From Pseudomonadales bacterium (GTDB taxonomy: Bacteria > Pseudomonadota > Gammaproteobacteria > Pseudomonadales > Endozoicomonadaceae), in contig OZ241746.1 in the NCBI GenBank assembly GCA_965201045.1, positions 1,703,081-1,727,080 of the forward strand: DNA of 24,000 nt, given 5' to 3'. The position numbers and the translations under genes were made by a program. The notes below the pieces were generated by a model that saw nothing but the letters and a program-made list of their open reading frames with translations, was not told where the DNA came from and did no database searches. Numbering within the stretch: position 1 is the stretch's first letter; every line of letters starts with the position of its first letter. This document shows positions 7,668 through 9,527 of the stretch, piece by piece.

Positions 7668-9527
7668 TCACATCAAATTAACAATTTTGGGAGTAATCAG
7701 AAACAACCTGACATTTTTTATATATTCATTTTCTTTGTTACGGAACAGCGTTCCAAGCAGAGGTAAATCACCAAGAAGAGGAATTTTCTTTACGCCCACT
7801 GATTTTTTTTCATAAAAATAACCACCCACCAGCAAACTTTCATCTTCATCAATCATCGCCTGTGTACTGATTGCGGTATTTTTTACCACAGGCAATTTAA
7901 CATCATCACCCAGATTGGTGGCTTCTTCACTAGTGCCGTCCTGTATGTTCACATCCAGATGAACTTTTTTCTCATGAAGTTCTCTGATAATTCTTGGGGT
8001 AACTTTAAGCACGGAACCCGAGGTGATCGGATAAAGCTGTGCAGTATTATTATTGTTATCACCACCTGCTACTTTAACATAAAATGTCTGGCTGTTGTCC
8101 AGTATTGCTTCCATGTTATCCAACGTTAATACTGAAGGTTGTGAGAGAATTTTAGCTCTGTTTTTTGTGGCTAAAAGCTTTACGCTGGCTAGTAACCGTT
8201 TGCCCGCTACTTTCAATATCGTAGCTGCATCATTTCCAGAGGGGTCAAATTTGAATTCTGCTCCTGAGGGTTTACGGGTCACACTACCTGCTCCCCAGTT
8301 GACACCCAGGTCTTCAATATTTTTGATGTCCACATCAATAATTGAAACATTAATTTCAATTTGTGAAAGCGGTTTATCCAGCGTCTTAAGCAAACTCTCA
8401 TACATCGGCATTTTTTCAGCATAATCGTGAACAATTACTGAATTAGAACGGCGATCTGCATTAATAAATACATTATCTGCAGTGCCTTTCTGGCGTTCTT
8501 CTTTATTTTGCACAGGTGGGTTTTGTGCGCTCAGTTTAGGAGGTTGCTCCCCGGTAATGGGGGTGGCAGGTGTTATACTTTTTGAGCGTGTAGGTGTGTT
8601 TGCCGGTGCTAGATTTTCAACACCGCCTTTGATAACAATATCCTGAAGCAATCTAGCTACACCGGGAATCTGTATTTGCTGCTCCCGATAATTAATAACA
8701 TGATCTTCAGCCCAGGCATATTTCAGTGCAAACACTTTAAAAACCATTTCCTGTTTCTGTTTTTTTTGATGTTTCTCATCAAGCAGCGTCGCTGTTTCTG
8801 TAACCAGCTCTATATAACGGGGAGGACCTGAAAGGTAAATGATGCCTTCACGGGGACGCTCTCTCCAGCCATAACGGCTATCCCATACGCCCATATCAAT
8901 AAGGGTTTTTTTAAGCGCTTCTGTAGTTAAATGTTTGAGATTAACAATGGTTTTACTTATTTCTTGACCGTCATAAACATAGAGCGTATCACCATCGAAA
9001 TACCACAGCAAGTGGTTGAGCTGAGCTAATTCATCCAAAAAAGCAACTGATGGCAACGGACCTATTTTACCATTGACAACGCCCGTCACTTTTTCACTGA
9101 TAAGCACCGGAAGCCCATAGTTGCCGGCAAAGTTTTTTAACACTTCAGCAACCGGTTCACCGGCACCGAAGTAAGCATAGGGCGTGCTTTTAGTTGTTTT
9201 ATCTTCAACGGGAGTAGCGGGTGCTTGTTTGGGTTGATCAGGCTCTGTTTCATCCTGCTCATGGGCTTGCTGTTCTGCCTGCATTTCCGGAAAGTTGATC
9301 TGTTCTCCAAGCATAAGTGACTGTGTTGGGTTTATTTGGTTAAATTCACTTAATTCCTGGGTGGTATAACCGTACATTTCTGCGATATCATACAATGTTT
9401 CTCCGGGTTGCACGATATGCTTCATTGATTCAGCGGCATTAACTGGCAACAGGATAAACAGCATTATCCCTATAAAGATTAACCATTTTTGCAGACAATA
9501 ACAGAAATGAAAAATTCCCGTAGCCAT
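7668..9527 (-). CDS. sctC: Type III secretion outer-membrane secretin SctC (YscC family) with N-terminal LysM domain
   Basis: 619-codon ORF with GGAG upstream. Signal peptide (KWLIFIGIMLFILLPVNA/AES). LysM motif at aa 37-80 (nt 9288-9419): HIVQPGETLYDIAEMYGYTTQELSEFNQINPTQSLMLGEQINFP. N0-like segment VAEVLKNFAGNYGLPVLISEKVTGVVNGKIG...LLWYFDGDTLYVY. Secretin core ILSQPSVLTLDNMEAILDNSQTFYVKV...LKVTPRII...KIPLLGDLPLLGTLFR. Confidence 0.9.
   Translation of the reverse strand: MATGIFHFCYCLQKWLIFIGIMLFILLPVNAAESMKHIVQPGETLYDIAEMYGYTTQELSEFNQINPTQSLMLGEQINFPEMQAEQQAHEQDETEPDQPKQAPATPVEDKTTKSTPYAYFGAGEPVAEVLKNFAGNYGLPVLISEKVTGVVNGKIGPLPSVAFLDELAQLNHLLWYFDGDTLYVYDGQEISKTIVNLKHLTTEALKKTLIDMGVWDSRYGWRERPREGIIYLSGPPRYIELVTETATLLDEKHQKKQKQEMVFKVFALKYAWAEDHVINYREQQIQIPGVARLLQDIVIKGGVENLAPANTPTRSKSITPATPITGEQPPKLSAQNPPVQNKEERQKGTADNVFINADRRSNSVIVHDYAEKMPMYESLLKTLDKPLSQIEINVSIIDVDIKNIEDLGVNWGAGSVTRKPSGAEFKFDPSGNDAATILKVAGKRLLASVKLLATKNRAKILSQPSVLTLDNMEAILDNSQTFYVKVAGGDNNNNTAQLYPITSGSVLKVTPRIIRELHEKKVHLDVNIQDGTSEEATNLGDDVKLPVVKNTAISTQAMIDEDESLLVGGYFYEKKSVGVKKIPLLGDLPLLGTLFRNKENEYIKNVRLFLITPKIVNLM

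Follow-up and report, generated by a model that had tools for sequence, protein, structure and literature searches.

An in-frame LysM domain at the N-terminus of the type III secretion secretin SctC in the family Endozoicomonadaceae

[quoted passage not shown] The fusion is genuine and in frame and is restricted to a single clade of SctC, and the C-terminal tail that follows the secretin core in YscC and InvG is missing. We consider it probable, though well short of certain, that the ring of LysM domains anchors or positions SctC in the bacterium's own cell wall, probably also aiding assembly without a pilotin.

Domain architecture of the window SctC

The gene sctC occupies positions 7668–9527 of the reverse strand as an unbroken frame of 619 codons with an ATG start, and a Shine–Dalgarno-like GGGGGAG lies 11 nt 5' of the ATG. 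The 619-aa product scored 474.2 bits against TIGR02516, the NCBIfam equivalog model for SctC, with a cut-off of 238.45. An AlphaFold2 model was built from a 79-sequence alignment (mean predicted local distance difference test score, pLDDT, 82.7), and Pfam, AlphaFold2 and Foldseek recovered the SctC domain order, with the ring-building N0 and N1/N3 domains followed by the secretin β-barrel. By these tests the protein belongs to SctC and its N-terminal module to the LysM family. The full SctC layout had been proposed in an earlier note on this DNA, made from the letters alone, and it is upheld by these analyses from N0 to the secretin core, with a signal peptide predicted by inspection.

Residues 1–31 (MATGIFHFCYCLQKWLIFIGIMLFILLPVNA followed by AE; 9435–9527, reverse strand) form a predicted Sec-type signal peptide, with K14 in the n-region, a hydrophobic core at residues 15–28 and a cleavage site between VNA and AE; the AlphaFold2 model places a hydrophobic helix at residues 3–25 of the same region. 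There is no lipobox Cys, and the possibility that the protein is a liposecretin, a self-piloting lipoprotein, was rejected on the absence of a Cys in the cleavage region.

The LysM profile PF01476 matches residues 37–80 (9288–9419, reverse strand) over 43 of 43 profile positions, with an E-value of 8.7e-9 and 35.6 bits against a gathering cut-off of 20.9. These are the coordinates at which the earlier note had placed an in-cis LysM. The canonical motif residues (G-[DE]-[TS]-L, I-A, Y-G, N, G-Q and P) are present, with Glu replacing the Asp of GDT, and alignment of 55 homologues gives the consensus HxVxPGE[TS]L..IA..YG...L...N....L..GQ.I..P. The predicted fold is β-α-α-β, with strands at residues 35–37 and 75–77 and helices at 44–51 and 55–62 (pLDDT ~95), and the LysM segment alone aligns with both LysM domains of the Thermus thermophilus 2xLysM endopeptidase-related protein (PDB: 4uz2) with an E-value of 5e-12. 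A predicted disordered linker of 35 aa follows (residues 81–115; 9183–9287, reverse strand), whose composition of 23% Asp/Glu and 14% Pro agrees with its previous description as acidic and Pro-rich. The pLDDT falls below 50 at residues 83–104 of the linker and at residues 303–346, in an insert within N3.

N0, N1, N3 and the barrel, all on the reverse strand, are confidently predicted. N0 (residues 116–186; 8970–9182; pLDDT above 95) is matched by PF21304 (T3S_SPI-1_N0) at residues 123–186. N1 (residues 190–257; 8757–8960) is delimited by secondary structure and pLDDT, and resembles the N0–N1 structures of EscC, InvG and MxiD. N3 (residues 260–406; 8310–8750) contains the disordered insert at about residues 300–350 and is covered by PF03958 (Secretin_N) at residues 264–389, while the β-barrel core (residues 435–616; 7680–8225) is matched by PF00263 (Secretin) at residues 452–616 and is followed by 3 residues. 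Foldseek matched the whole model to InvG with an E-value of 1.5e-34, and its N0–N1 part to fragments of InvG, MxiD and EscC with target-normalised TM-scores of 0.77–0.90, the score being 0.89 for the InvG periplasmic domain (PDB: 4g08).

Distribution of the LysM-SctC fusion

A search covering 5.8 billion proteins, clustered at 90% identity, returned ~77 clusters combining LysM, N0, Secretin_N and Secretin. The named clusters come from Endozoicomonas, Parendozoicomonas, Sansalvadorimonas or Candidatus Endonucleobacter, or are labelled Endozoicomonadaceae, apart from two labels that are out of line, 'Salinisphaera sp. G21_0' and 'invertebrate metagenome'. Their public annotation is plain 'SctC', except for one 'SpiA', and Pfam LysM hits are already present in it. 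The window protein is identical to P0267, which was recorded from a 5.66-Mb contig and whose cluster bears the NCBI name 'Endozoicomonadaceae bacterium SctC'; similarly named members from other assemblies lie 1–2 residues away from it.

Scanning a single representative genome for each GTDB species gave 79 loci, in which LysM was then sought with a hidden Markov model of the LysM segment. An in-frame LysM, stop-free up to N0, was found at 51 of the 79 species-representative loci. The in-frame fusion without a stop between LysM and N0 is shared by 54 loci, complete chromosomes among them, and a frameshift or stop at this junction, a doubt raised in the earlier note, is thereby excluded. Endozoicomonadaceae genera or unclassified Oceanospirillales/Pseudomonadales metagenome-assembled genomes (MAGs) account for 49 of the 51 loci (one record is titled Salinisphaera sp. 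G21_0), and the scan added Kistimonas and Ca. Sororendozoicomonas to the genera with LysM-SctC. The other two loci, L049 and L050, come from AT-rich 'uncultured Gammaproteobacteria' bins and have an N-terminus like the Endozoicomonas type.

At these two loci a solitary LysM-SctC lies beside ftsY (L049, 9416–11524, 702 aa; L050, 8490–10649, 719 aa; bins EG18N_Bin1 and LS07H_Bin2, respectively), and no sctV was found within 10 kb of it. Each of the two bins also holds a second SctC, LysM-less and set in a conventional sctC-D-F-J-L cluster (L070 and L073), and both kinds of SctC likewise occur in one Endozoicomonadaceae MAG (L032 and L053).

LysM was absent from 27 loci of other taxa, including Chitinimonas, Burkholderiales, Ca. 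Ichthyocystis and Desulfovibrionaceae, where the match begins at N0. About 800 SctC-like representatives (50% identity) reach an E-value below 1e-30; a survey of the 150 nearest found LysM in only the five closest. LysM-SctC is a trait of the whole family Endozoicomonadaceae and is not peculiar to the window genome.

Phylogeny and conservation

In a neighbour-joining tree of 229 SctCs, built without bootstrap, 57 LysM proteins form one clade, and P0269 and P0074, which lack an intact LysM, are nested within it. This pattern indicates one LysM acquisition and one lineage of secondary decay. Across 57 sequences, mean pairwise identity is 0.48 for LysM, 0.63 for N0, 0.60 for the barrel and 0.10 for the linker. 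The linker varies in length from 25 to 197 aa and is polar, acidic and Pro-rich in composition. A conserved LysM with a drifting linker fits a selected domain on a flexible tether.

Long linkers (105–197 aa; for example P0034–P0069) within the genus Endozoicomonas contain the short conserved motifs LDA..FPP and vDYNY, and D..SPAL.AFG.RP directly before N0, none of which is present in the window protein. These motifs may represent an additional functional element.

Absence of a C-terminal tail

The secretin core ends in a conserved VRLFLITPRI, and 72 of 75 LysM-bearing clusters end no more than 10 residues past it; among the remaining three, P0076 runs ~20 residues past the core and two are cut short. 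The tail past the core measures 97–102 residues in YscC, AscC and the Photobacterium SctC, 48 in MxiD and 45 in InvG, and just 2 in Ralstonia HrcC. The C-terminal S domain is the pilotin-binding site of InvG and MxiD, which need InvH and MxiM as pilotins; for YscC this role falls to the lipoprotein YscW. Because LysM-SctC is without any S-domain-like tail, classical pilotin dependence is disfavoured.

The absent tail is a stronger argument than absent neighbours. No pilotin or lytic transglycosylase gene was seen near sctC in the window, nor among the ten genes scanned at the Parendozoicomonas locus L005. The earlier note had tentatively linked the fusion to such an absence, an argument that proved weak: the T3SS genes of the family are dispersed, as described below, and the lack of such genes near the window sctC therefore says little. 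A word-indexed search for YscW, insensitive for a small protein, returned two Yersinia clusters from 9 candidates and is silent on the presence of a pilotin. No Endozoicomonadaceae SctJ was found among the best 120 YscJ relatives, which reach down to 46% identity.

Comparison with known secretins

Alignments of YscC, AscC, MxiD, Ralstonia HrcC and InvG begin at about residues 113–158 of the window protein, where N0 starts or a little way into it, and leave the LysM uncovered in every case; the previous statement that characterised injectisome secretins lack this domain holds for those aligned. The best characterised sequence relatives are YscC and AscC, which share 33% identity over aa 116–617 and the N0-N1-N3-secretin order with the window SctC. 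They differ from it at both ends, their N0 directly following the signal peptide and their core being followed by the 97–102-aa tail, whereas the window SctC has LysM and a linker before N0 and is tailless. The closest solved structures are InvG and MxiD (phmmer E ~1e-63; N0–N1 TM-score 0.79–0.90), which, unlike the window SctC, are LysM-less and carry the S domain of 45–48 residues at the C-terminus.

Precedents for the architecture come from other secretin systems. In PilQ, N0 is preceded by AMIN domains (PMC9239104). The likeness lies in peptidoglycan-binding modules directly N-terminal to the secretin N0, but these are AMIN and not LysM domains, usually in two or three copies, and belong to the type IVa pilus and not to a T3SS. 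Legionella LspD, with a SPOR domain just before N0, is the sole type II secretion system (T2SS) secretin of this kind known (PMC9239104); it resembles LysM-SctC in having a single peptidoglycan-binding domain at this place, and differs in the domain, SPOR versus LysM, and in the system, T2SS versus T3SS. In the type IV pilus (T4P), TsaP brings LysM to PilQ in trans (PMC9239104; TsaP ring, PDB: 6ve2), so that a LysM-type domain again ties a secretin to peptidoglycan, although as a separate protein and not in cis. With LysM at residues 37–80 and N0 from residue 116, LysM-SctC belongs among the secretins that have an in-cis wall-binding domain before N0. These constitute an architectural class, not a homologous family, and LysM differs from the AMIN and SPOR precedents.

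Five other SctC representatives, P0134 (1027 aa, Desulfovibrionaceae), P0227, P0082 and two more, have SPOR at the C-terminus, and further extended SctCs include one with a TcpQ domain and one with a Cds6_C NTF2-like domain. The SPOR-SctCs belong to unrelated SctC lineages and carry one or two SPOR domains after a long spacer; with LysM-SctC they share the in-cis fusion to a wall-binding domain. In-cis wall binding would therefore have arisen more than once in T3SS secretins, which suggests repeated, independent evolution of self-anchoring secretins in T3SS.

No description of a LysM-SctC fusion was found in the literature searched, where the sole T3SS-linked LysM is that of the Burkholderia cepacia-complex injectisome, located in a separate giant protein (PMC8565462). 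The fusion stands unremarked in many public annotations, and its principle is already known from other secretins. The earlier note had called it unusual. This stands insofar as no example occurs in the classical Ysc systems compared or in the literature searched; it does not stand within Endozoicomonadaceae, where the fusion is family-wide and already in public databases. With 51 species and Pfam LysM hits on record, it comes close to being common and annotated, but not in the classical Ysc systems compared.

Neighbouring T3SS genes and injectisome type

The window sctC is monocistronic and divergent from sctX-sctY-sctV. The intergenic region between sctC and sctX (270 bp, 9528–9797) is presumed to hold the promoters of both; scans for sigma-70 promoters and terminators around sctC gave matches no commoner than in shuffled sequence. 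On the forward strand, the sctX-like gene (9798–10190, 130 aa) matches PF09474 with an E-value of 1.3e-3 and TIGR02502 with 23.4 bits, under the cut-off of 30. Its product shares 43–57% identity with that of the gene in the corresponding place at 11 related species loci; at the others no similarity was detected. Next comes a gene for an sctY-like tetratricopeptide repeat (TPR) chaperone (10209–10553, forward strand, 114 aa), which is conserved in position and scores 59.1 bits against NF052415, under the cut-off of 70. The export-gate gene sctV (10588–12687, forward strand, 699 aa) matches PF00771 with 746 bits and TIGR01399 with 945 bits, and its product is 74–91% identical across the family loci. 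These four are the sole T3SS genes in the window, the rest of which holds insertion sequence (IS) elements, a TPR protein, obg, L27/L21 and ankyrin proteins.

The divergent island of sctC and sctX-sctY-sctV was present in 46 of 46 Endozoicomonadaceae species loci with enough flanking DNA, and not at L049 or L050. It was seen at L001, L002 and L004–L048 around position 6700–12100, and at 7668–12687 in the window. The housekeeping genes beside it differ between genera. In the window lineage and in Endozoicomonas the island is cut off from other T3SS genes, whereas in Parendozoicomonas, Sansalvadorimonas and Kistimonas the 3' end of sctC adjoins a convergent operon for SctL, YscK, SctJ, SctI, SycN, TyeA, a YopN-like protein, a YopB-like translocator and an LcrH-like chaperone. 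At the Parendozoicomonas locus L005, YscK, SycN and TyeA score 61.5, 58.1 and 74.2 bits, all over the Pfam cut-offs. For Ca. Endonucleobacter, Supplementary Table 3 of PMC11521996 lists LcrV, YopB and YopD at separate positions, all expressed in the host; the term 'secretin' was not found in the portion of the supplementary workbook of that paper available to us.

The T3SS of the family has a Ysc-type gene set in scrambled order and dispersed layout. Its Ysc-specific accessory genes are SctX, SctY, YscK, SycN and TyeA, and together with a YopN-like protein these are shared with Ysc systems. The secretin itself is not filed as a classical Ysc secretin, because it does not group with YscC and AscC, has no yscB-C-D operon and has no tail. 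Yersinia, Aeromonas and Photobacterium have this operon, whereas the window sctC stands alone. The grouping is weak evidence, since the tree that sets the LysM clade apart from the YscC/AscC/Photobacterium clade is a neighbour-joining one without bootstrap. An SPI-2/Esc affiliation, raised by Sodalis- and Ewingella-like homologues, was rejected: the SctCs of those bacteria lie further away in the tree, and the accessory gene set is of the Ysc type.

Other features of the window

Convergent with sctC is a gene for a TPR protein of 689 aa (5323–7392, forward strand), for which TPR is the only family assignment. Its N-terminus contains 2.5 copies of a 120-bp (40-aa) Ser/Gln/Arg-rich repeat (5454–5756) and its C-terminus four 15-bp repeats encoding KEVTK (7270–7329), and the protein could be secreted or effector-like. 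Two paralogous ankyrin-repeat proteins of ~450 aa (20161–21522 and 22119–23456, both forward strand) have near-identical hydrophobic N-terminal leaders (MKNFIAYSLFLISNYLSANRKIIKSVFALSLLWFCSVSFA...). Ankyrin-repeat proteins are typical of host-associated bacteria, and these two are possible secreted factors. A LigA-like protein of 397 aa (15139–16332, reverse strand) comprises only the adenylation and OB-fold domains of NAD-dependent DNA ligase and begins with an apparent signal peptide (MGKNLIVLLIISTLLISLPAATRL); this truncated protein is possibly exported, and such a protein would be unusual.

Mobile elements are dense in the window (90–1563, 2028–2917, 4139–4408 and 18425–20100). They include an IS66-family transposase split into two open reading frames (ORFs), with a 46-bp direct duplication at 627–729, and an IS5-like one that occupies two overlapping frames. 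An ISAzo13-like fragment is also present, and an IS200 tnpA shares sequence with the TnpB (OrfB_IS605) gene that it overlaps. A group II intron catalytic domain (Rfam RF00029, 50.1 bits against a gathering score of 40) matches positions 4936–5002 of the reverse strand, within a stretch (4409–5289) that has no ORF of at least 80 aa, and is probably an intron remnant.

Discussion

The reading that we favour is that LysM serves as a wall anchor of the secretin ring. The SctC of the Endozoicomonadaceae ancestor would have gained a single LysM between signal peptide and N0. After Sec export, each of the 15–16 ring subunits would carry a LysM at N0 on a flexible tether of 25–197 residues, and these modules would attach to glycan strands in the peptidoglycan of the same cell. 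In cryo-tomograms, the channels of T3SS and T4P secretins are surrounded at their N-terminal part by the peptidoglycan layer (PMC9239104). Random-coil scaling gives an estimated reach of ~4 nm, typically, and ~12 nm, maximally, for the 35-residue linker, so that LysM could touch glycan strands around the level of N1–N3. Multivalent binding of this kind would fix the ring in the wall and set its position, and LysM would probably also capture SctC monomers there during assembly, in place of a classical S-domain-binding pilotin. We infer that LysM does functionally for the T3SS what the AMIN domains do for PilQ and the N-terminal SPOR domain for Legionella LspD.

Several points weigh against the wall-anchor reading. 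LysM domains bind chitin oligomers too. Among the 150 nearest SctC representatives, 30 have no more than 15 residues past the core; 5 of these are the LysM-clade representatives and the others are LysM-less, and tail loss and LysM gain are therefore not strictly coupled. An internal deletion has removed the LysM helices of P0269, whose signal peptide and remaining SctC are kept; P0074, sister of the P0269 lineage, has a degenerate LysM below Pfam detection in an otherwise intact SctC. Since both keep the remainder of the protein, LysM is dispensable at least in this lineage. In P0269/P0071 (L034, MAG HC_Bin2) both LysM helices are deleted, which leaves the order signal peptide, NIVQPS..QIMHL, linker; the adjacent SctV is intact and 87% identical to that of the window.

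A different role for the same binding is possible, although we regard it as rather unlikely: LysM may act mainly as a transient targeting or assembly device that gathers SctC monomers on certain peptidoglycan, such as septal, polar or nascent, and thereby selects injectisome sites, and not as a permanent anchor. A tailless LysM-SctC calls for an alternative assembly aid, as this reading would provide. AMIN and SPOR domains prefer septal peptidoglycan, whereas to our knowledge no such preference is known for LysM. The AMIN domains of PilQ offer a precedent in T4P (PMC9239104), and the title of PMC5285504 speaks of the recruitment of T4P to future division sites. Sequence cannot separate transient from permanent binding, and targeting and anchoring are not mutually exclusive.

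The LysM ring may instead bind other N-acetylglucosamine oligomers, for example periplasmic chitooligosaccharides, and couple injectisome assembly or stability to a host-derived sugar signal, which we consider very unlikely. The closest solved LysM relative, 4uz2, is a 2xLysM protein that binds carbohydrate. A chitinase of Ca. Endonucleobacter is highly expressed and chitinases are reported in Endozoicomonadaceae (PMC11521996). Yet a periplasmic LysM is surrounded by a large excess of peptidoglycan, the link to chitooligosaccharides is one that we purely infer, and the fusion is retained in lineages with very different hosts. In a specific form of this reading, more improbable still, the LysM ring would be a sugar-responsive element at which chitooligosaccharides, released by the symbiont's secreted chitinases and taken into the periplasm, compete with peptidoglycan. 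If so, the injectisome would need contact with host chitin or mucin for its assembly, positioning or stability.

It is also highly improbable that LysM is a neutral appendage, tolerated since one ancestral fusion. The deletion in the HC_Bin2 lineage and the degenerate domain of P0074, with the rest of SctC intact, are what such an appendage would leave behind, but 51 species retain LysM, which has a conserved motif and 48% pairwise identity, next to a linker with 10% identity and an eightfold range in length. There is next to no chance that a wrong start, a frameshift or a chimeric assembly joined a separate LysM gene to sctC, a reading refuted by comparative data: the ORF is continuous, LysM must belong to the exported protein because any start 3' of it would drop the sole signal peptide although a secretin needs export, and, besides the 54 stop-free loci, an identical protein is recorded from a 5.66-Mb contig and two-substitution variants from other assemblies.

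What is understood of the passage of injectisome secretins through the cell wall, and of their attachment to it, comes mainly from the pilotins and dedicated lytic transglycosylases of a few enteric pathogens. Here, a family of marine animal symbionts and parasites, associates of corals, sponges, molluscs and ascidians, has built a wall-binding domain into a tailless secretin. LysM-SctC extends to T3SS a solution known from type IV pili, with AMIN, and from one T2SS, with SPOR. The fusion is a simple sequence marker for the Endozoicomonadaceae T3SS, and the culturable Endozoicomonas and Parendozoicomonas, together with the natural LysM deletion lineage, provide a test case for whether wall binding may take the place of a pilotin.

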